Assembly (NCBI RefSeq): GCF_003019035.1
Contig: NZ_CP027447.1
From: Escherichia coli
Lineage (GTDB): Bacteria; Pseudomonadota; Gammaproteobacteria; Enterobacterales; Enterobacteriaceae
DNA length: 64,000 nt
Reading direction: 5' to 3' (one strand)
This document shows positions 23,852-53,133 of the stretch, piece after piece. The first letter of the stretch is position 1. Each line of letters opens with the position of its first letter. Below the pieces are notes generated by a model. It searched no databases, had not been told where the DNA came from, and saw only the letters and a list, made by a program, of their open reading frames with translations. Both the position numbers and the translations under genes were made by a program.

Positions 23852-24469
23852 TCAACTGGCTGCTGCCAGAGGCATTTCCGGCCAGTTGATATCCGGTGCA
23901 GTGCTGATGTCAGTCGCATTAAGCACATCTATGAAATCAAGCACGGCGTTTAGTTTTTCCGTCTCCTGGGGCGTCAATCGGCGTCCGGCTCGTAGTTTGA
24001 GATTTATAAGCTCAACAGATGCCATTGCCTGTTCCTCAAGTTGCTGACGATGCACTCCGGCAGCTTCCAGTTCTGCTGCGTGCTGTCGTCCCGCATCTGT
24101 CACCCAGGTCTCACCATCCCAGACATCATAGATAGTAGCTGGCTGTTTCACCGTCGTATCAGGAGGGTAATCTCCCGGTTGTGTGATTTGCACAGCGTTA
24201 CCATTCTCTGTGCTGTAAACCGTTTCGCCTCTGTGGTCTGGAACATATTTCCAGATGTTCTGGTCGGTATCACGACAGACAGCGAAGCCGGGGCGTTTTT
24301 CTGGTGGCGCGTCAATGCATGAGTGAGCCGGAATTCCAACACCATAAGCGAGATACTCAACAGTGGCAGAGAGATATTCACGGTTTTCAGCATCGTAGTT
24401 ATAAACGGTAATATCGCCTGCAGTTATAGCGATACCATTCTGATCAAGTACTGCAGCAGCATTATTCAT
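23852..24469 (-). CDS. tail fibre assembly protein (Tfa/U-like), 205 aa
   Basis: Tfa-like sequence; start overlaps stop of the inverted alternative fibre segment. Confidence 0.7.
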   Translation of the reverse strand: MNNAAAVLDQNGIAITAGDITVYNYDAENREYLSATVEYLAYGVGIPAHSCIDAPPEKRPGFAVCRDTDQNIWKYVPDHRGETVYSTENGNAVQITQPGDYPPDTTVKQPATIYDVWDGETWVTDAGRQHAAELEAAGVHRQQLEEQAMASVELINLKLRAGRRLTPQETEKLNAVLDFIDVLNATDISTAPDINWPEMPLAAAS

Positions 24470-24972
24470 TAAGTAGCCCTTACAATATAGTTAAACGCAA
24501 TATTACGGGGGCGGTTTTCCGTTCCTGTATTCCCTCCGTTGGCACCTAATCTATAAACACCACGAGTGCCAATAGCACGTAGTGAAGATGGAACTTTTAC
24601 ACCTGACTCATCTGTTTTAACAATCCCGCCATCACCGTATGTAGCCAGTATACCAGGGTTTGTTCCTGCACGGGTGCTATTTGCGGCAAGCCCTTCACCA
24701 GTCCATAACTCCATATAGTGAATATGATCTATAACCGAATGTGATTGTGCATTAAGCAAGGAACGCCCTGAATCAATTCCCCGCCCGTCATCCCAGCCGC
24801 GAATAAACTCACCCCGTAAATCCGGTAATTTATTCGCGGGGTAGGCTTTTGCCAGTTTGGGGTACATTTCAGAAGAAAATGCTGCACCGTTACATTTCAG
24901 CCACCCTGCTGGCGGTGTGGCTGAGGGCCACGGAACGGGCACACCAACGGGCAGTGCAGAGCCTTCCCCCAA
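24469..24972 (-). CDS. alternative tail fibre C-terminal segment (silent in this orientation; no own start expected)
   Basis: First 65 aa near-identical to internal part of the + strand fibre; different C-terminal ~100 aa ending in the same RPRNIAFNYIVRA motif. Confidence 0.65.
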   Translation of the reverse strand: MGEGSALPVGVPVPWPSATPPAGWLKCNGAAFSSEMYPKLAKAYPANKLPDLRGEFIRGWDDGRGIDSGRSLLNAQSHSVIDHIHYMELWTGEGLAANSTRAGTNPGILATYGDGGIVKTDESGVKVPSSLRAIGTRGVYRLGANGGNTGTENRPRNIAFNYIVRAT

Positions 24973-24978
24973 ACCAAC
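24772..24978 (-). repeat. inverted repeat, right copy
   Basis: Reverse complement matches 23371..23569. Confidence 0.8.
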
Positions 24979-24988
24979 GTTTTCGTCT
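24963..24988 (-). other. gix/hix-like recombination site, right (reads GACGAAAACGTTGGTTTGGGGGAA on the - strand)
   Basis: Same AAAC-NN-GGTTT core in inverted orientation. Confidence 0.5.
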
Positions 24989-25043
24989 TAACTCCCACCT
25001 ATACCAGCTATGTATTTTTAACAAAACAAAGAGGATATTTTTC

Positions 25044-25616
25044 ATGCAAATTGGCTACATTCGTGTGTCAACAAATGACCAGAATACAGATTTACAACGA
25101 AACGCACTGAACTGCGCAGGATGTGAACTGATTTTTGAGGATAAAATCAGCGGAACAAAGTCAGCCCGACCGGGATTGAAAAAGCTGCTCAGAACGTTAT
25201 CAGAAGGAGATACGCTCGTTGTCTGGAAGCTGGACAGGCTGGGCAGAAGCATGAAACACCTCATCACTCTTATTGAGGAACTGCGGGAAAAAGGGGTTAA
25301 CTTCCGTAGTCTTACAGACAGCATTGATACGTCAACACCCATGGGACGTTTCTTTTTTCACGTCATGGGGGCTTTAGCGGAAATGGAGCGTGAATTAATA
25401 GTTGAACGAACACTGGCCGGACTTGAAGCAGCACGTGCACAGGGGCGTATTGGTGGACGTCGTCCGAAACTGACAAAAGAGCAACATGAACAAATAGCAA
25501 GGCTGATCAAAAATGGCTATAGCAGGAAACAGTTGGCAATTATTTACGATATCGGTATATCGACGATTTATCGTTATCACCCTGTAGAGGAACTTCAAAC
25601 TCAAGCTGAGTTGTAA
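25044..25616 (+). CDS. Gin/Pin/Hin-family serine DNA invertase, 190 aa
   Basis: N-terminal MQIGYIRVSTNDQ catalytic-serine motif and near-identity of long blocks to Gin/Pin as I remember them; SD AAGAGGA. Confidence 0.85.
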   Translation: MQIGYIRVSTNDQNTDLQRNALNCAGCELIFEDKISGTKSARPGLKKLLRTLSEGDTLVVWKLDRLGRSMKHLITLIEELREKGVNFRSLTDSIDTSTPMGRFFFHVMGALAEMERELIVERTLAGLEAARAQGRIGGRRPKLTKEQHEQIARLIKNGYSRKQLAIIYDIGISTIYRYHPVEELQTQAEL

Positions 25617-34125: not shown

Positions 34126-34143
34126 TAAGCATTTTTTATGCCA
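34126..34143 (-). promoter_or_regulatory. sigma-54 promoter of hyc operon (- strand reads TGGCAT-N8-TGC)
   Basis: GG and GC elements spaced as in -24/-12 consensus, upstream of hycA. Confidence 0.6.
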
Positions 34144-34256: not shown

Positions 34257-34272
34257 TGGCACAATTATTGCT
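34257..34272 (+). promoter_or_regulatory. sigma-54 promoter of hyp operon (TGGCAC-N5-TTGCT)
   Basis: Near-consensus -24/-12 element ~30 bp upstream of hypA. Confidence 0.65.
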
Positions 34273-37993: not shown

Positions 37994-40072
37994 ATGTCAT
38001 ATACACCGATGAGTGATCTCGGACAACAAGGGTTGTTCGACATCACTCGGACACTATTGCAGCAGCCCGATCTGGCCTCGCTGTGTGAGGCTCTTTCGCA
38101 ACTGGTAAAGCGTTCTGCGCTCGCCGACAACGCGGCTATTGTGTTGTGGCAAGCGCAGACTCAACGTGCGTCTTATTACGCGTCGCGTGAAAAAGACACC
38201 CCCATTAAATATGAAGACGAAACTGTTCTGGCACACGGTCCGGTACGCAGCATTTTGTCGCGCCCTGATACGCTGCATTGCAGTTACGAAGAATTTTGTG
38301 AAACCTGGCCGCAGCTGGCCGCAGGTGGACTATACCCCAAATTTGGTCACTATTGCCTGATGCCACTGGCGGCGGAAGGGCATATTTTTGGTGGCTGTGA
38401 ATTTATTCGTTATGACGATCGCCCCTGGAGCGAAAAAGAGTTCAATCGTCTGCAAACATTTACGCAGATCGTTTCGGTCGTCACCGAACAAATCCAGAGC
38501 CGCGTCGTTAACAATGTCGACTATGAGTTGTTATGCCGGGAGCGCGATAACTTCCGCATCCTGGTTGCCATTACCAACGCGGTGCTTTCCCGCCTGGATA
38601 TGGACGAACTGGTCAGCGAAGTCGCCAAAGAAATCCATTACTACTTCGACATTGACGATATCAGCATCGTCTTACGCAGCCACCGTAAAAACAAACTCAA
38701 CATCTACTCCACTCACTATCTTGATAAACAGCATCCCGCCCACGAACAGAGCGAAGTCGATGAAGCCGGAACCCTCACCGAACGCGTCTTCAAAAGTAAA
38801 GAGATGCTGTTGATTAATCTCCACGAGCGGGACGATTTAGCCCCCTATGAACGCATGTTGTTCGACACCTGGGGCAACCAGATTCAAACCTTGTGCCTGT
38901 TACCGCTGATGTCTGGCGACACCATGCTGGGCGTGCTGAAACTGGCGCAATGCGAAGAGAAAGTATTTACCACTACCAATCTGAGCTTACTGCGCCAGAT
39001 TGCCGAACGTGTGGCAATCGCTGTCGATAACGCCCTCGCCTATCAGGAAATTCATCGTCTGAAAGAACGGCTGGTTGATGAAAACCTCGCCCTGACCGAG
39101 CAGCTCAACAATGTTGATAGTGAATTTGGCGAGATTATTGGCCGCAGCGAAGCCATGTACAGCGTACTTAAACAAGTTGAAATGGTGGCGCAAAGTGACA
39201 GTACCGTTCTGATCCTCGGTGAAACTGGTACAGGTAAAGAGCTGATTGCCCGCGCGATCCATAATCTCAGTGGGCGTAATAATCGCCGCATGGTCAAAAT
39301 GAACTGCGCGGCGATGCCTGCCGGATTGCTGGAGAGCGATCTATTTGGTCATGAGCGTGGGGCTTTTACCGGTGCCAGCGCTCAGCGCATTGGTCGTTTT
39401 GAACTGGCGGATAAAAGCTCACTATTCCTCGATGAAGTGGGCGATATGCCGCTGGAGTTACAGCCGAAGTTGCTGCGTGTATTACAGGAACAGGAGTTTG
39501 AACGTCTTGGCAGCAACAAAATCATTCAGACGGACGTACGTTTAATTGCCGCGACTAACCGCGATCTGAAAAAAATGGTCGCAGACCGAGAGTTCCGTAG
39601 CGATCTCTATTACCGCCTGAACGTATTCCCGATCCACCTGCCGCCACTACGCGAGCGTCCGGAAGATATTCCGCTGCTGGCGAAAGCCTTTACCTTCAAA
39701 ATTGCCCGTCGTCTGGGGCGCAATATCGACAGCATTCCTGCCGAGACGCTGCGCATCCTGAGCAACATGGAATGGCCGGGCAACGTGCGTGAGCTGGAAA
39801 ACGTCATCGAGCGCGCGGTATTGCTGACACGTGGCAACGTGCTGCAGCTGTCATTGCCTGATATTGCTTTACCAGAACCTGAAACGCCGCCTGCCGCAAC
39901 GGTTGTCGCTCAGGAGGGCGAAGATGAATATCAGTTGATTGTTCGCGTGCTGAAAGAAACTAACGGCGTGGTTGCCGGACCTAAAGGCGCTGCGCAACGT
40001 CTGGGGCTGAAACGCACGACCCTGCTGTCACGGATGAAGCGACTGGGAATTGATAAATCGGCATTGATTTAA
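37994..40072 (+). CDS. fhlA: formate hydrogenlyase transcriptional activator (sigma-54 enhancer-binding protein)
   Basis: Recognised sequence starting MSYTPMSD; AAA+ GETGTGKE motif; ORF track extends 12 codons upstream. Confidence 0.9.
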   Translation: MSYTPMSDLGQQGLFDITRTLLQQPDLASLCEALSQLVKRSALADNAAIVLWQAQTQRASYYASREKDTPIKYEDETVLAHGPVRSILSRPDTLHCSYEEFCETWPQLAAGGLYPKFGHYCLMPLAAEGHIFGGCEFIRYDDRPWSEKEFNRLQTFTQIVSVVTEQIQSRVVNNVDYELLCRERDNFRILVAITNAVLSRLDMDELVSEVAKEIHYYFDIDDISIVLRSHRKNKLNIYSTHYLDKQHPAHEQSEVDEAGTLTERVFKSKEMLLINLHERDDLAPYERMLFDTWGNQIQTLCLLPLMSGDTMLGVLKLAQCEEKVFTTTNLSLLRQIAERVAIAVDNALAYQEIHRLKERLVDENLALTEQLNNVDSEFGEIIGRSEAMYSVLKQVEMVAQSDSTVLILGETGTGKELIARAIHNLSGRNNRRMVKMNCAAMPAGLLESDLFGHERGAFTGASAQRIGRFELADKSSLFLDEVGDMPLELQPKLLRVLQEQEFERLGSNKIIQTDVRLIAATNRDLKKMVADREFRSDLYYRLNVFPIHLPPLRERPEDIPLLAKAFTFKIARRLGRNIDSIPAETLRILSNMEWPGNVRELENVIERAVLLTRGNVLQLSLPDIALPEPETPPAATVVAQEGEDEYQLIVRVLKETNGVVAGPKGAAQRLGLKRTTLLSRMKRLGIDKSALI

Positions 40073-40116
40073 CAGATGTGGTTATACTCGATCAACATTC
40101 AATGAAAGGAGGCAGT

Positions 40117-40545
40117 ATGGCAGTTTCAGCAAGAAATCAATTAACCGGAACAGTTAGCGCAGTAGCAATGGGCGCTGTGAATGACGAAGTAGAACTGACG
40201 CTGGCAGGTGGTGCAAAGCTGGTGGCAATTGTGACTCACAGCAGCCAGCAAGCGCTGGGTCTGGCGAAAGGGAAAGAAGCGATTGCCCTGATTAAAGCCC
40301 CGTGGGTAACGCTGGCAACGGAAGACTGTGGACTGAAATTCTCTGCTCGCAACCAGTTTGCTGGCAGCGTGTCGACAATCACCGAAGGCGCAGTGAACGC
40401 CACTGTCCATATCAAAACGGATGCGGGTTTTGAAATTGTGGCAGTGGTAACAAATGAAAGTCAGGATGAAATGAAACTCACCACTGGCTCGCGCGTTATT
40501 GCATTGATCAAAGCATCAGCCATCCTGATTGCCACCAAAGCGTAA
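40117..40545 (+). CDS. tandem Mop/TOBE-domain molybdate-binding-type protein, 142 aa
   Basis: Two internal repeats each starting SARNQ; strong SD AAGGAGG before ATG 40117. Confidence 0.75.
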   Translation: MAVSARNQLTGTVSAVAMGAVNDEVELTLAGGAKLVAIVTHSSQQALGLAKGKEAIALIKAPWVTLATEDCGLKFSARNQFAGSVSTITEGAVNATVHIKTDAGFEIVAVVTNESQDEMKLTTGSRVIALIKASAILIATKA

Positions 40546-40556
40546 GCGCCTTATTT

Positions 40557-40593
40557 GCCGGAGAGTATGGCTCTCCGGCAGATTTATTTCTTT
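40557..40593 (+). terminator. terminator hairpin GCCGGAGAG-TATGG-CTCTCCGGC followed by T-rich tract; overlaps ygbA 3' end
   Basis: Perfect 9-bp stem and T-tract. Confidence 0.6.
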
Positions 40594-40928
40594 GGACGAT
40601 ATTTTTCTGGCAACTCCGGCACCGGACGCTTGTCATCGATGAGATGACGCACGGTTAAGATCGGATGACGCCACAGCATTCTCGGCCCGGCCCAACGCAT
40701 AATCTGTTTCATCTCTTCACGCTTTGCAGGCTGGTAACAGTGCACCGGACACTGCTTACAGGCTGGTTTCTCTTCGCCGAACACACATTTATCCAGCCGC
40801 TTTTGCGCGTAGGCAAACAGCGCGTCGTAATGCTCCGGCTCCGCTGACGCCTGCGGGCATTTCGCTTGATAAAGATCGATCATTTTTTTAATCGTCAGTT
40901 TTTCACGAGAGATACGCTTGCCGGACAT
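40584..40928 (-). CDS. ygbA: conserved protein YgbA
   Basis: Recognised sequence; position between fhlA and mutS. Confidence 0.85.
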   Translation of the reverse strand: MSGKRISREKLTIKKMIDLYQAKCPQASAEPEHYDALFAYAQKRLDKCVFGEEKPACKQCPVHCYQPAKREEMKQIMRWAGPRMLWRHPILTVRHLIDDKRPVPELPEKYRPKK

Positions 40929-41214
40929 GCTGCCTCCATACTCTTAAGGTGTATTTATATTACAACTTAATTTGAAAGGGGACTATGGCTCTGAAGGAGG
41001 AGGTTTATTCAACCGACGCAATTTTGCGTACTTGCTTCATAAGCATCACGCAAAAGCTGCAAAACAGCATCTTTCCCGGAATCACCATCAAGAACTCGCC
41101 GTTCGCTTCTTCCCCTGAAATGATTAACTCCGGTATCATGTGCGCCTTATGTGATTACAACGAAAATAAAAACCATCACACCCCATTTAATATCAGGGAA
41201 CCGGACATAACCCC

Positions 41215-43776
41215 ATGAGTGCAATAGAAAATTTTGATGCCCATACGCCCATGATGCAGCAGTATCTCAAGCTGAAAGCCCAGCATCCCGAGATCCTGCT
41301 GTTCTATCGGATGGGTGACTTTTACGAACTGTTTTATGACGACGCGAAACGCGCCTCGCAGCTGCTGGATATTTCACTGACCAAACGCGGTGCTTCCGCG
41401 GGAGAGCCGATCCCGATGGCGGGGATCCCCTACCATGCGGTGGAAAACTATCTCGCCAAACTGGTGAATCAGGGCGAGTCCGTTGCCATCTGCGAACAAA
41501 TTGGCGATCCGGCGACCAGCAAAGGTCCGGTTGAGCGCAAAGTTGTGCGTATCGTTACGCCGGGCACCATCAGCGATGAAGCGCTGTTGCAGGAGCGTCA
41601 GGATAACCTGCTGGCAGCTATCTGGCAGGACAGCAAAGGGTTCGGCTACGCGACGCTGGATATCAGTTCCGGGCGTTTTCGCCTGAGCGAACCGGCTGAC
41701 CGGGAAACGATGGCGGCAGAACTGCAACGCACTAATCCGGCGGAACTGCTGTATGCAGAAGATTTTGCTGAAATGTCGTTAATTGAAGGTCGTCGCGGTC
41801 TGCGCCGTCGTCCGCTGTGGGAGTTTGAAATCGACACCGCGCGCCAGCAGTTGAATCTGCAATTTGGCACCCGCGATCTGGTCGGTTTTGGCGTCGAGAA
41901 CGCGCCGCGCGGACTTTGTGCTGCCGGTTGTCTGTTGCAGTATGCGAAAGATACCCAACGTACGACTCTGCCGCATATTCGTTCCATCACCATGGAACGT
42001 GAGCAGGACAGCATCATTATGGATGCCGCGACGCGTCGTAATCTGGAAATCACCCAGAACCTGGCGGGCGGTGCGGAAAACACGCTGGCTTCAGTGCTCG
42101 ACTGCACCGTCACGCCGATGGGCAGCCGTATGCTGAAACGCTGGCTGCATATGCCAGTGCGCGATACCCGCGTGTTGCTTGAGCGCCAGCAAACTATTGG
42201 CGCATTGCAGGATTTCACCGCCGAGCTGCAGCCGGTACTGCGTCAGGTCGGCGACCTGGAACGTATTCTGGCGCGTCTGGCTTTACGAACTGCTCGCCCA
42301 CGCGATCTGGCCCGTATGCGTCACGCTTTCCAGCAACTGCCGGAGCTGCGTGCGCTATTAGAAAATGTCGATAGCGCTCCGGTACAGGCGTTGCGTGAAA
42401 AAATGGGCGAGTTTGCCGAGCTGCGCGATCTGCTGGAGCGAGCAATCATCGACACACCGCCAGTGCTGGTACGCGACGGTGGTGTTATCGCACCGGGCTA
42501 TAACGAAGAGCTGGATGAGTGGCGCGCGCTGGCTGACGGCGCGACCGATTATCTGGAGCGTCTGGAAGTCCGCGAGCGTGAACGTACTGGCCTGGACACG
42601 CTGAAAGTCGGCTTTAACGCGGTTCATGGTTATTACATTCAGATCAGCCGTGGACAAAGCCATCTGGCACCCATCAATTACATGCGTCGCCAGACGCTGA
42701 AAAACGCCGAGCGCTACATTATTCCAGAGCTAAAAGAGTACGAAGATAAAGTTCTCACCTCAAAAGGCAAAGCACTGGCACTGGAAAAACAGCTTTATGA
42801 AGAGCTGTTCGACCTGCTGTTGCCGCATCTGGAAGCGTTGCAACAGAGCGCAAGCGCACTGGCAGAACTTGATGTGCTGGTTAACCTGGCGGAGCGGGCC
42901 TATACCCTGAACTACACCTGCCCGACCTTTATTGATAAACCGGGTATTCGCATCACCGAAGGCCGCCATCCGGTGGTTGAACAGGTACTGAACGAGCCAT
43001 TTATCGCCAACCCGCTGAACCTGTCGCCGCAGCGCCGCATGTTGATCATCACCGGTCCGAACATGGGCGGTAAAAGTACCTATATGCGCCAGACCGCGTT
43101 GATTGCGCTGATGGCCTATATCGGCAGCTACGTACCGGCGCAAAAAGTCGAGATTGGGCCGATCGACCGTATCTTCACGCGCGTAGGAGCAGCGGACGAT
43201 CTGGCATCCGGGCGTTCAACCTTTATGGTGGAAATGACCGAAACCGCCAATATTTTACATAACGCCACCGAGTACAGTCTGGTGCTGATGGATGAGATTG
43301 GGCGCGGAACCTCCACTTACGATGGTCTGTCGCTGGCGTGGGCGTGCGCGGAAAATCTGGCGAATAAGATTAAAGCGTTGACGTTGTTTGCCACCCACTA
43401 TTTCGAGCTAACCCAGTTACCGGAGAAAATGGAAGGCGTCGCCAACGTGCATCTTGATGCACTGGAGCACGGCGACACCATTGCCTTTATGCACAGCGTG
43501 CAGGATGGCGCGGCGAGCAAAAGCTACGGCCTGGCGGTTGCTGCTCTGGCGGGCGTGCCAAAAGAGGTTATTAAGCGCGCACGGCAAAAACTGCGTGAGC
43601 TGGAAAGCATTTCGCCGAACGCCGCCGCTACGCAAGTGGATGGTACGCAAATGTCTTTGCTGTCAGTGCCAGAAGAAACGTCGCCTGCGGTCGAGGCACT
43701 GGAAAACCTGGACCCGGATTCACTCACCCCGCGTCAGGCGCTGGAATGGATTTATCGCTTGAAGAGTCTGGTGTAA
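41215..43776 (+). CDS. mutS: DNA mismatch repair protein MutS
   Basis: Recognised sequence; Walker [10 protein letters not shown]. Confidence 0.95.
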
Positions 43777-43782
43777 TAACAA

Positions 43783-43815
43783 TTCCCGATAGTCTTTTGC
43801 TATCGGGAATATTAA
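43783..43815 (+). terminator. hairpin TTCCCGATAG-TCTTTTG-CTATCGGGAA after mutS
   Basis: 10-bp stem seen; weak T-tract. Confidence 0.45.
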
Positions 43816-50594: not shown

Positions 50595-50627
50595 TAAAAA
50601 GGTCCGATGGGCATCGGACCTTTTATT
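50595..50627. terminator. bidirectional terminator AAAAA-GGTCCGATG-GGC-CATCGGACC-TTTTATT
   Basis: A-tract, 8-9-bp stem, T-tract between convergent ygbN and ecdD-like gene. Confidence 0.7.
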
Positions 50628-50863
50628 TAGCGCTTACCTTCCGCCAGCAGCGGCGGGATGCTCGGCACCATCGGCGCGTCATCAATATCTTTCTGCGTCA
50701 TGCGGAACGCTTCGGGATAATGTTCGCGGCTGGTGCGGCGCAGCGGTTCGGTATCGCGCCAGGTATAGAGGCAATGCTGGCACTGGTAGACCGTCCAGAC
50801 ATCTTTTACCGGCGATTTCGCCATCACTTCAATCTGTTCATCAGCACAACGTGGACAAATCAT
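50627..50863 (-). CDS. small subunit of UbiD/UbiX-type aromatic acid decarboxylase (EcdD/YclD-like), 78 aa, CxxC...CxxC
   Basis: Two Cys pairs (CPRC, CQHC); position downstream of UbiD-like gene. Confidence 0.7.
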   Translation of the reverse strand: MICPRCADEQIEVMAKSPVKDVWTVYQCQHCLYTWRDTEPLRRTSREHYPEAFRMTQKDIDDAPMVPSIPPLLAEGKR

Positions 50864-50873
50864 CTTGTTCTCC

Positions 50874-52325
50874 TTATTGACGTGCGGCCAGCATAGCGGT
50901 CAGTTTTTCAGCCCAGGCTTTGGTTTCCGGTAAATCCACCACCGGCTGACTGTAGTGACCGCGGTTGTCCGGGGCGACAGGCGTGGTGGCGTCGATAATC
51001 AGCTTGTCGGTGATCCCCGCCGGGCTTGAGCCTGGGTCGAGTTCCAGCACGGACATATTCGGCAACTGCACCAAATCCCCTGCCGGGTTCACTTTCGAGG
51101 AGAGCGCCCACATCACCTGCGGCAGGTTGAACGGATCAACGTCTTCATCGACCATAATCACCATCTTCACATAGCCCAGACCGTGCGGCGTGGTCATCGC
51201 ACGGAGGCCCACCGCGCGGGCAAAGCCACCGTAGCGTTTTTTGGTGGAGATAATCGCCAGCAGGCCGTGGGTGTACATGGCGTTTACCGCCTGCACTTCC
51301 GGGAACTCGGCTTTCAGTTGCTGATACAGCGGCACGCAGGTGGCTGGCCCCATCAGGTAGTCGATTTCCGTCCACGGCATCCCGAGATAGAGCGATTCAA
51401 AAATGGGTTTGCTGCGATAAGAGACGTTATCGATGCGCACCACGGTCATGTTGCGCCCGCCGGAGTAGTGCCCGGTAAACTCACCGAACGGCCCTTCGAT
51501 TTCACGTTTACGGCTTTCGATGACACCTTCGAGGATCACTTCTGAACCCCACGGCACATCAAAACCAGTCAGCGGGGCGGTGGCGATCGGGTACGGGCTT
51601 TCACGCAGCGCGCCTGCCATTTCGTACTCGGACTGATCATATTTCAGCGGCGTGGCCCCCATCAGCGTGATGATCGGATCGTTACCGAGGGTGATCGCAA
51701 TCGGCAGATCTTCACCGCGCTCTTCCGCTTTATGCAGATGCAGGGCGATATCGTGCATCGGCACCGGTTGCAGGCCGAGCTTACGTTTGCCCTTCACTTC
51801 CATGCGGTAGATACCGACGTTCTGCTTGCCGAAGTTATCCGGATCAAGCGGATCGCGGGAAACCACGCACGCTTTGTCGAGATAGAAACCGCCATCGCCA
51901 TCGTTTAAACGAAACAGCGGCAGGATATCGAACAGGTTGATCTCGTCTCCATCGACGGTGTTCTGCGCCCAGGCTGGATTGGCTCGGCGTTCCGGGGCAA
52001 TCGGGAAGTTGTCCCAGCGGCGGATAAACTCATCGATCTGTTTTTTAACCGGGGTATTTGGCGGCAGGCCGAGGGAAATCGCGTGGTTCTGCCAGGAACC
52101 GATGGTGTTCATCGCCACGCGGGCATCGGTAAAGCCGCGAATATTATCAAACCACAGCGCTGGCGCGCCGTCGCCGATACGCCCGGTGGCGTTGGCTGCG
52201 GCTGCCAGATCCGGTTCTGCGTTCACCTCTTCGCTGATTTTCAGCAATTGCCCATGGTCGTCGAGCGCCCTACCAGGCCATCGGCGTAACCGGCACGGAT
52301 ACCGGCGAGCGTTTTCATACTGCAC
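50874..52325 (-). CDS. UbiD-family decarboxylase (EcdC/YclC-like); homology begins ~ALDDHGQ, N-terminal ~20 codons of the ORF derive from out-of-frame upstream sequence
   Basis: UbiD-like sequence through most of the ORF; N-terminus disrupted by the junction near 52270. Confidence 0.7.
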   Translation of the reverse strand: MQYENARRYPCRLRRWPGRALDDHGQLLKISEEVNAEPDLAAAANATGRIGDGAPALWFDNIRGFTDARVAMNTIGSWQNHAISLGLPPNTPVKKQIDEFIRRWDNFPIAPERRANPAWAQNTVDGDEINLFDILPLFRLNDGDGGFYLDKACVVSRDPLDPDNFGKQNVGIYRMEVKGKRKLGLQPVPMHDIALHLHKAEERGEDLPIAITLGNDPIITLMGATPLKYDQSEYEMAGALRESPYPIATAPLTGFDVPWGSEVILEGVIESRKREIEGPFGEFTGHYSGGRNMTVVRIDNVSYRSKPIFESLYLGMPWTEIDYLMGPATCVPLYQQLKAEFPEVQAVNAMYTHGLLAIISTKKRYGGFARAVGLRAMTTPHGLGYVKMVIMVDEDVDPFNLPQVMWALSSKVNPAGDLVQLPNMSVLELDPGSSPAGITDKLIIDATTPVAPDNRGHYSQPVVDLPETKAWAEKLTAMLAARQ

Positions 52326-52579
52326 GGAATAACGATCATGCCGTCGGTACGAAAGGAACCTGAGGAGATGGTCGCCGCCTGATCCGCCGAGTTATGGCTG
52401 AAGTCTGCGAGGGCAGCAACATCGCGAGCGCTGTAAGGCGTTTCCAGTTCAATGGTGGTTTTCGCCCACGTCGACATCACCAGATGAGTCTCGACATTCG
52501 GCATCTCCCGCAGCGCTTGCAGTAATGCCACACCAAGAGGCGCACCGGTAGCCCCTGTCATCCCGACGATCAGTTTCAT
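52241..52579 (-). pseudogene. truncated UbiX-like flavin prenyltransferase (EcdB/Pad1-like): 105 aa of ~190 retained, C-terminal half missing
   Basis: N-terminal UbiX homology up to GYADGLVGR then STTMGNC-stop; no UbiX C-terminal coding sequence in any frame downstream. Confidence 0.65.
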
Positions 52580-52725
52580 TGCTTACTCTCTTAATTGTTC
52601 GTATACGAACGTTATTATTAACATACTCCTTCATTTCCACAGCGGCAAGGATTGAAAAGTAACAACATCTTCTTCGTCACTGAAAAACCGCTATGATAGC
52701 GACAGAGAATTAGCCCGGAGTTTAC

Positions 52726-53133
52726 ATGGCGTTACGAAATAAAGCGTTCCATCAGTTACGACAGCTTTTTCAGCAGCATACGGCCCGCTGGCAGCACGAG
52801 TTACCTGACCTGACCAAACCACAGTACGCGGTGATGCGCGCCATTGCTGATAAGCCTGGTATCGAACAGGTGGCACTGATAGAAGCAGCAGTCAGCACCA
52901 AAGCAACGCTGGCAGAAATGTTGGCAAGAATGGAAAATCGTGGCTTAGTCAGACGTGAACATGACGCCGCTGATAAGCGGCGACGCTTTGTCTGGCTGAC
53001 TGCCGAAGGAGAAAAGGTACTTGCTGCGGCGATACCGATTGGCGACAGTGTGGATGAGGAATTTTTGGGGCGTTTGAGTGGAGAAGAGCAGGAGCTGTTT
53101 ATGCAGCTGGTGCGCAAGATGATGAGCAAATAG
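52726..53133 (+). CDS. MarR/SlyA-family transcriptional regulator, 135 aa
   Basis: MarR-like winged-helix region; divergent from the ecd-like cluster. Confidence 0.7.
   Translation: MALRNKAFHQLRQLFQQHTARWQHELPDLTKPQYAVMRAIADKPGIEQVALIEAAVSTKATLAEMLARMENRGLVRREHDAADKRRRFVWLTAEGEKVLAAAIPIGDSVDEEFLGRLSGEEQELFMQLVRKMMSK

Follow-up and report, generated by a model that had tools for sequence, protein, structure and literature searches.

Results and discussion

A tandem-Mop gene between fhlA and ygbA

The DNA analysed (the window) is a stretch of 64,000 nt from the Escherichia coli contig NZ_CP027447.1, and all positions given below refer to it. Between fhlA and the convergently oriented ygbA the window carries a coding sequence that we call mop. 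The features of this interval, together with one element upstream of the hyp genes, are listed below.

34257..34272, + strand: perfect sigma-54 -24/-12 box TGGCACAATTATTGCT, ahead of hypA; no other place in the window fits the pattern without a mismatch
37994..40072, + strand: fhlA, encoding the sigma-54 activator of the formate regulon; product 99% identical to K-12 FhlA
40073..40116, + strand: fhlA-mop spacer of 44 nt; no terminator or promoter call, predicted fold -4.3 kcal/mol, z +0.5
40073..40545, no strand: the 473 bp missing in K-12-type genomes, from the pairwise alignment with MG1655
40080..40088, + strand: GGTTATACT, a -10-like TATACT box 28 nt 5' of the mop ATG, conserved in several genera
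40105..40112, + strand: Shine-Dalgarno sequence AAAGGAGG, 4 nt 5' of the mop ATG, read from the sequence
40117..40545, + strand: mop (modG-like) open reading frame of 142 codons plus stop; same CDS as RefSeq WP_000301062.1
40120..40323, + strand: Mop domain 1, residues 2-69, the best stretch of the TIGR00638 match
40336..40536, + strand: Mop domain 2, residues 74-140, an internal repeat of domain 1 (43%); Tub and Mop chains match residues 74-139
40553..40583, no strand: terminator hairpin common to mop and ygbA, 14-bp stem with T-rich tail; -23.1 kcal/mol, z -4.9
40584..40928, - strand: ygbA, convergent neighbour, 114 aa; Pfam YgbA_NO with E 4e-41, NCBIfam PRK10410

The mop frame follows the fhlA stop codon (40070-40072) and runs from the ATG at 40117 to the TAA at 40543-40545. 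An in-frame GTG at 40078 would give an ORF of 155 aa with 13 additional residues, which is the form found in a few database entries. This start was rejected, as sequence conservation begins at the ATG and the Shine-Dalgarno sequence fits the ATG; a GGAGG is kept at the same position in nearly all orthologous loci. Comparison with 18 orthologues yielded dN/dS values of 0.026-0.098 (counting only pairs with unsaturated dS), equal to the range for hypE in the same loci, and mop is therefore a genuine gene, not an open frame that arose by chance. Its GC3 of 0.48 is somewhat below the 0.57-0.63 of the neighbouring genes. The initial annotation had proposed a gene of 142 codons with two repeated Mop domains and a strong Shine-Dalgarno sequence at this place, and the open reading frame, the ribosome-binding site, the Pfam and NCBIfam profiles and the neighbouring genes all agree with it.

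In RefSeq the protein is called "TOBE domain-containing protein", and the identical sequence is found on at least 1000 contigs in the public databases, under that name or as "molybdopterin-binding protein" or "molybdenum-pterin-binding protein". Literature searches yielded no paper on the E. coli mop gene. The gene is an ordinary, functional one of a known kind, and already catalogued; new from the present analysis are its specific assignment to ModG and the history of its deletion.

Domains and relationship to ModG

The Mop protein contains two copies of the TOBE domain (Pfam, E 8.8e-35), which NCBIfam likewise reports as two Mop domains (TIGR00638, E 4.1e-42). The halves formed by residues 1-71 and 72-142 can be aligned without a gap at 43% identity over 69 residues (E 3e-18), and both open with SARNQ, so that the proposed internal repeat stands. 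Neither the Pfam nor the NCBIfam profiles detected a DNA-binding, ATPase or other effector domain. A monomer model made with AF2 on the basis of 25 homologues reached a pLDDT of 96.3.

The closest relative of solved structure is ModG of Azotobacter vinelandii (1H9J), with a phmmer E-value of 5e-33 over residues 1-140 and 49% identity; the AF2 model superimposes on it with a Foldseek TM-score of 0.95 and an rmsd of 1.3 A. ModG (1H9J, 1H9K, 1H9M), which binds molybdate in the cytoplasm, likewise consists of two tandem Mop domains only, in about 142 aa, and in both proteins the SARN, AVN, T and KA(P/S) motifs are kept in both halves. The genomic setting is different: the E. coli gene follows the hyp genes and fhlA with no mod genes seen adjoining, whereas modG of Azotobacter presumably sits within the mod locus. 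E. coli has no nitrogenase.

After ModG, the next best match is the C-terminal di-Mop part of E. coli ModE (E 1e-15), and the single-domain Mop and Tub proteins come third. The ModE structures (1H9R, 1H9S, 1O7L, 1B9M) have the same fold, with TM-scores of 0.88-0.90 and 34-36% identity. The first Mop domain of ModE shares SARNQ, T, S and KAPW with the Mop protein, whereas its second domain is without the SARN (ADNQ in the alignment) that the Mop protein keeps in both halves; moreover, ModE has an N-terminal DNA-binding domain and the Mop protein does not. An assignment as ModE was rejected, the match covering only positions 124-261 of the 263 in the profile with 88 bits against a cut-off of 369. 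A hidden winged-helix N-terminus of the ModE type was rejected as well: the protein begins at the first Mop domain, and a start at the GTG would add no more than the 13 residues mentioned above.

The single-domain relatives are MopII of C. pasteurianum (1GUG), Mop of Sporomusa (1FR3) and Tub of Eubacterium limosum (9BEB). They have the same domain and the same ligand positions, and each half of the Mop protein matches such chains with E-values from 2e-9 to 3e-5 and 30-40% identity. They are chains of about 70 aa that form hexamers, whereas the Mop protein has two domains in one chain; a trimer of such fused chains would give the same six-domain shell. The resemblance to the TOBE domains of ModC, WtpC, MalK and CysA is that of a distantly shared fold (TM-scores 0.6-0.7). 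The matches to the C-termini of ModC and WtpC are weak, and a ModC- or WtpC-type ATPase was rejected, since only the last 60-70 positions of these profiles were matched with 26-49 bits against cut-offs of 285-440; proteins of that type have an ABC ATPase domain, which is lacking here.

In Tub, tungstate and molybdate are bound by Ser4, Arg6, Ala20-Val21-Asn22, Ser40, Lys60 and Ala61: the site on the threefold axis is made by the backbone of Ala20-Val21-Asn22, the interface site by Ser4, Arg6, Lys60 and Ala61 together with Ser40 of the neighbouring chain, and these sites have been likened to those in ModG, Mop and ModE (PMC11980592). The residue numbering of Tub is identical to that of the first half of the Mop protein. 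Mapped by alignment from the Tub structure, and not from a bound structure of the protein itself, the predicted ligand positions are S4, R6, A20-V21-N22, T40, K60 and A61 in domain 1 and, with a shift of 72 residues, S76, R78, A92-V93-N94, T112, K132 and A133 in domain 2. In the alignment of 25 homologues, which includes ModG and reaches down to 40-46% identity, these positions show either no variation or at least 90% conservation in both halves.

Judged by its sequence and predicted fold, the Mop protein is a stand-alone di-Mop molbindin of the ModG type. The binding of molybdate or tungstate, proposed in the initial annotation, is well supported by the homology to ModG and the retention of the predicted ligand positions.

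Gene order in the Enterobacteriaceae and copies elsewhere

With each bacterial species represented by one genome, a scan recovered 49 mop loci. Almost all of those from Enterobacteriaceae are arranged as hypE-fhlA-mop, and mop lies 40-60 nt 3' of fhlA. This order extends over at least 12 enterobacterial genera and is found in E. albertii and a cryptic Escherichia clade, in Citrobacter (nine species-level genomes), Pseudocitrobacter, Klebsiella and Raoultella, and also in Kluyvera, Pluralibacter, Enterobacter, Yokenella, Lelliottia and Kosakonia. In Phytobacter and in one Kosakonia genome mop directly follows hypE. The stretch 3' of mop is variable: ygbA adjoins mop in some genera and lies 1.4-6 kb away in others. 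The association of mop with fhlA is conserved within the Enterobacteriaceae but not obligatory.

Two genomes have mop after ascF-ascB and not after hyp-fhlA, namely Raoultella sp. BIGb0138 (locus L014, 5512-6018) and Enterobacter sp. BIGb0383 (L030). The Raoultella locus keeps about 60 nt of the 3' end of fhlA in front of mop, which suggests that the hyc-hyp-fhlA block was deleted and mop spared. In the Enterobacter locus a gene pair that has the appearance of a toxin-antitoxin system lies 5' of mop.

Homologues also occur away from fhlA. Those of Salmonella enterica (L052-L054, L068-L070) show 87-89% identity; some of them adjoin a fimbrial usher/chaperone pair, a DUF6429 gene and an IS66 TnpB gene, others a PTS operon with a sigma-54 activator. 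Large plasmids of Klebsiella and Enterobacter carry homologues with 75-79% identity. On the conjugative IncF plasmid pCAV1344-250 of K. pneumoniae (L059) the copy has an IS3 element on one side and a DeoR/ABC-transporter cluster on the other. The presence of such copies in Salmonella and on plasmids indicates that the gene has also moved horizontally. The orthologues in Serratia, Cedecea and Edwardsiella (69-73% identity) lie in unrelated contexts. As clues to function, the Salmonella and Klebsiella plasmid contexts were uninformative.

Expression of mop

The spacer between fhlA and mop has no terminator and does not fold stably, and the hairpin 3' of mop is a strong one. The leader of mop is at most 44 nt long and was searched, with its surroundings, for regulatory elements. 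A scan of 39500-41250 gave no consensus sigma-70 promoter, the + strand upstream of mop has no sigma-54 -24/-12 box, and Rfam returned no match with E <= 1 in 39700-41300 and none at the gathering score in the whole window, so that a Moco riboswitch was not found either. The literal ModE box TATAT-N5-9-TAYAT is absent from the window. Upstream regions of 23 orthologous loci were also scored for a ModE operator with inverted CGTTATAT-type half-sites: the best scores were 10-11 of the 16 positions of the modA palindrome, values equalled by 18-90% of shuffled sequences, and the modA control scored 16/16. The palindrome model is built on one known site, that of modA, and weak or atypical sites may escape it. 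For the ModE-type site considered at the outset, nothing above chance was therefore seen.

The sigma-54 box TGGCACAATTATTGCT upstream of hypA would be the distal promoter of hypABCDE-fhlA and possibly mop; we take it to be the hyp promoter from what is established for the K-12 hyp operon. A second box, TGGCATAAAAAATGCT, lies in the same hycA-hypA intergenic region (34128-34143, - strand, 2 mismatches), and the two divergent boxes match what one would expect of the hyp and hyc promoters. With no ModE, sigma-54, sigma-70 or Rfam element recognised at mop, read-through from hyp-fhlA is the simplest expectation and the likeliest source of mop expression.

The TATACT box could instead be a (weak) promoter of mop itself. 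In Escherichia, Citrobacter, Kluyvera and Pseudocitrobacter, GG(C/T)TATACT precedes the ATG by about 28 nt. It is also present at the translocated Salmonella copy, where the homology to the E. coli upstream region stops exactly at this box. By eye, no convincing -35 element accompanies the box upstream of mop.

Proposed role

We consider it likely that mop encodes an ancestral molbindin of the ModG type that serves as a molybdenum buffer or store, that it probably stands at the end of the hyp-fhlA transcript, and that it was lost by a single deletion of 473 bp. The product would be a cytoplasmic protein of 15 kDa with the two Mop/TOBE domains only. By homology, it is expected to assemble as a trimer of six Mop domains, a shell similar to the Mop hexamer; the trimer of ModG holds up to eight oxyanions. 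Two kinds of site in the shell would take up molybdate and, almost certainly, tungstate as well: one on the threefold axis at the backbone of the A-V-N loops, the other in buried interfaces at the S-x-R, T and K-A positions. Most probably the protein would act as a buffer or store of molybdate in the cytoplasm, for use by the enzymes that contain the molybdenum cofactor.

Formate dehydrogenase H, a subunit of formate hydrogenlyase, is a molybdoenzyme and needs the molybdenum cofactor. As the probable last gene of the hypABCDE-fhlA transcript, mop would be expressed together with the genes for the maturation and regulation of formate hydrogenlyase, and a molybdate buffer made along with hyp-fhlA would be physiologically sensible. 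For fdhF and hyc to be expressed maximally, FhlA and formate are needed, and so are ModE and molybdate (PMC3149613). The one link to formate hydrogenlyase that was found, also for the possible sensing role of the initial annotation, is that of position and probable co-transcription. It may be positional only, given the orthologues and copies in unrelated contexts and the Raoultella locus without adjoining hyp-fhlA. Since two thirds of the E. coli genomes, including K-12 with its fully active formate hydrogenlyase, are without mop, its contribution is dispensable in many conditions.

The gene could also encode a regulatory partner, a molybdate-loaded di-Mop protein that modulates FhlA, or ModE through mixed Mop assemblies. 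The location immediately 3' of fhlA in most Enterobacteriaceae with no terminator in between would suit such a function, as would the molybdate dependence of hyc and fdhF transcription via ModE (PMC3149613) and the fact that the sensor of ModE is the same di-Mop module. However, the Mop protein is without a DNA-binding or effector domain, mop is kept where fhlA is not adjacent, K-12 controls formate hydrogenlyase by molybdate in its absence, and Azotobacter ModG is regarded as a homeostasis or storage protein (PMC11980592). A regulatory partner thus seems unlikely; it would give the formate regulon of the mop-containing lineages a direct molybdenum input. In a more specific form, the lineages that keep mop would use its product, translated from the fhlA transcript, as a partner of FhlA or ModE that depends on molybdate and tunes the formate-hydrogenlyase and molybdoenzyme regulons to the metal supply. 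This form is quite unlikely too, and among the present results nothing but the gene position speaks for it. If it were true, the molybdate control of hyc and fdhF in K-12 would be a derived, simplified circuit.

Similarly improbable, to about the degree of that specific form, is a protein that primarily binds tungstate (a "TudG") and guards molybdoenzymes from mis-metallation or supplies tungsten. Sites of the Mop family take tungstate and molybdate about equally: the di-Mop part of ModE and MopII were crystallised with tungstate, and Tub binds both. In a survey of gut microbes, ModG-type architectures were found in more genomes predicted to use tungsten than in genomes predicted to use molybdenum (PMC11980592). 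Against this, none of the loci examined has tupA or tungstoenzyme oxidoreductase genes near mop, and the neighbouring pathway uses molybdenum. The sequence does not discriminate between molybdate and tungstate as ligands.

Loss of mop in E. coli

To the absence of mop from K-12 the genome of MG1655 bears witness: its fhlA and ygbA stop codons are separated by 36 nt with no gene inside. Aligned with the window, MG1655 matches it up to the fhlA stop, then shows a gap of 473 bp, and continues with a diverged, homologous hairpin and the 3' end of ygbA; the homologous terminator hairpin thus lies directly 3' of fhlA in K-12. Beside the deletion, the 3' end of ygbA differs as well (114 aa here vs 117 aa in K-12). 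The 36-nt spacer of K-12 (CTGCAAATTGCCGGACAG...CCTGTCCGGCATACT) is homologous to the 38-nt spacer that follows mop in its mop-containing relatives. As the K-12 fhlA-ygbA spacer is the old mop-ygbA spacer, the K-12 state is one of a deletion from stop to stop. No repeats, integrase or IS element were found at the borders of mop.

The K-12 spacer is closer to the post-mop spacer of Citrobacter amalonaticus than to that of mop-containing E. coli. For terminator and spacer together (L001, 6418-6453, compared with L010, 6430-6480), K-12 and C. amalonaticus are closer to each other than K-12 is to mop-containing E. coli and E. albertii. The K-12-type spacer may be one of two old alleles that coexisted, or an imported segment.

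Among 5426 complete E. coli genomes mop is present in 1892, always as a single chromosomal copy, which agrees with the variable presence suggested in the initial annotation; the empty junction of the K-12 type is found in 3507, and by difference 27 have neither. We take the reference strains EC958 and SE15 to belong to phylogroup B2, SMS-3-5 to F, 042 to D, MG1655 to A, IAI1 to B1 and O157:H7 Sakai to E. The first four contain mop and the last three do not.

EC958, B2: mop present
SE15, B2: mop present
SMS-3-5, F: mop present
042, D: mop present
MG1655, A: mop absent
IAI1, B1: mop absent
O157:H7 Sakai, E: mop absent

In IAI39, which has rearrangements there, the mop locus was not located. This distribution, with the phylogroups mapped from reference strains only, fits a single loss in the common ancestry of A, B1 and E, with mop retained in B2, D and F. 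One deletion of 473 bp, from the fhlA stop to the mop stop, would then have removed the gene in the lineage that contains these three phylogroups.

The initial annotation had instead favoured an accessory gene, gained by insertion into a hotspot between fhlA and mutS in some E. coli lineages. Such a gain would go well with the presence of mop in only 35% of the complete E. coli genomes, with the homologues on Klebsiella and Enterobacter plasmids and in Salmonella islands beside an IS66 TnpB gene, with the lower GC3 of mop and with the variable content of the interval 3' of mop in other genera. Yet mop occupies the same place after fhlA in no fewer than 12 genera, its dS values resemble those of hypE, and it is present in E. 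albertii and the cryptic Escherichia clade; its borders are free of mobile-element traces, the K-12 spacer is the homologue of the post-mop spacer, and one junction type is common to all 3507 genomes. Furthermore, the interval that varies in other genera is that between mop and ygbA, not that between fhlA and mop. An insertion is consequently very improbable and already close to refuted. The gene order and the junction point to mop being an ancestral Enterobacteriaceae gene at this place, and to the K-12 state being a deletion and not the empty site of an insertion elsewhere.

That mop is decaying, or is a remnant without function that is about to be lost as it was in K-12, could be argued from its loss without obvious cost in two thirds of the E. 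coli genomes, but deserves next to no credence and is effectively refuted by the signal of selection: dN/dS is 0.03-0.10 across genera, 1889 of the 1892 copies are full length, the ligand positions are kept, and the strong Shine-Dalgarno sequence and the terminator are conserved.

Other features of the window

Positions 1 to about 26020 belong to a Mu-like myovirus prophage, the left end of which is outside the window and which ends just upstream of hycI. It shows 86% identity to Klebsiella phage KP12 over 87% of the query and 94% identity to Escherichia phage PhiKM over 67%, includes genes for tail-fibre assembly (23852-24469) and a Gin-like invertase (24849-25616), and is without a counterpart at this place in K-12 or EC958.

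Between ygbN and rpoS (50627-53133) lies the kpdBCD-hosA cluster, which comprises a UbiD-type decarboxylase, a flavoprotein subunit and a MarR regulator. K-12 does not have it, but Sakai, IAI1, SMS-3-5 and 042 do. Compared with the latter four, the cluster in the window is without about 304 bp, with the junction at 52259-52269 and an overlap of 11 nt; as kpdB thereby loses its 3' half and kpdC its first codons, this strain probably has an inactive decarboxylase.

Compared with EC958, the 3' end of fhlA and mop (39000-40800) have 0-6 differences in 300 nt. For ygbA and mutS (40800-43800) the figure is 13-28, which amounts to about 9% at most. The change is abrupt, and such a mosaic boundary near 40800 suggests that the mutS region has recombined in the past.

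Implications

The practical value of these observations is modest, and mop does not represent a new kind of system. Nevertheless, K-12 is the reference for molybdate homeostasis and for formate hydrogenlyase, yet it is without a conserved protein, predicted to bind molybdate in the cytoplasm, that is kept in most Enterobacteriaceae and in about one third of the complete E. coli genomes, among them those of the B2, D and F reference strains. Phylogroups B2, D and F hold many extraintestinal pathogens. The clean natural deletion of mop offers a ready-made comparison between strains with and without the gene. Because K-12 is without mop, results on molybdenum and tungsten obtained in K-12 may not transfer unchanged to the strains that contain it.
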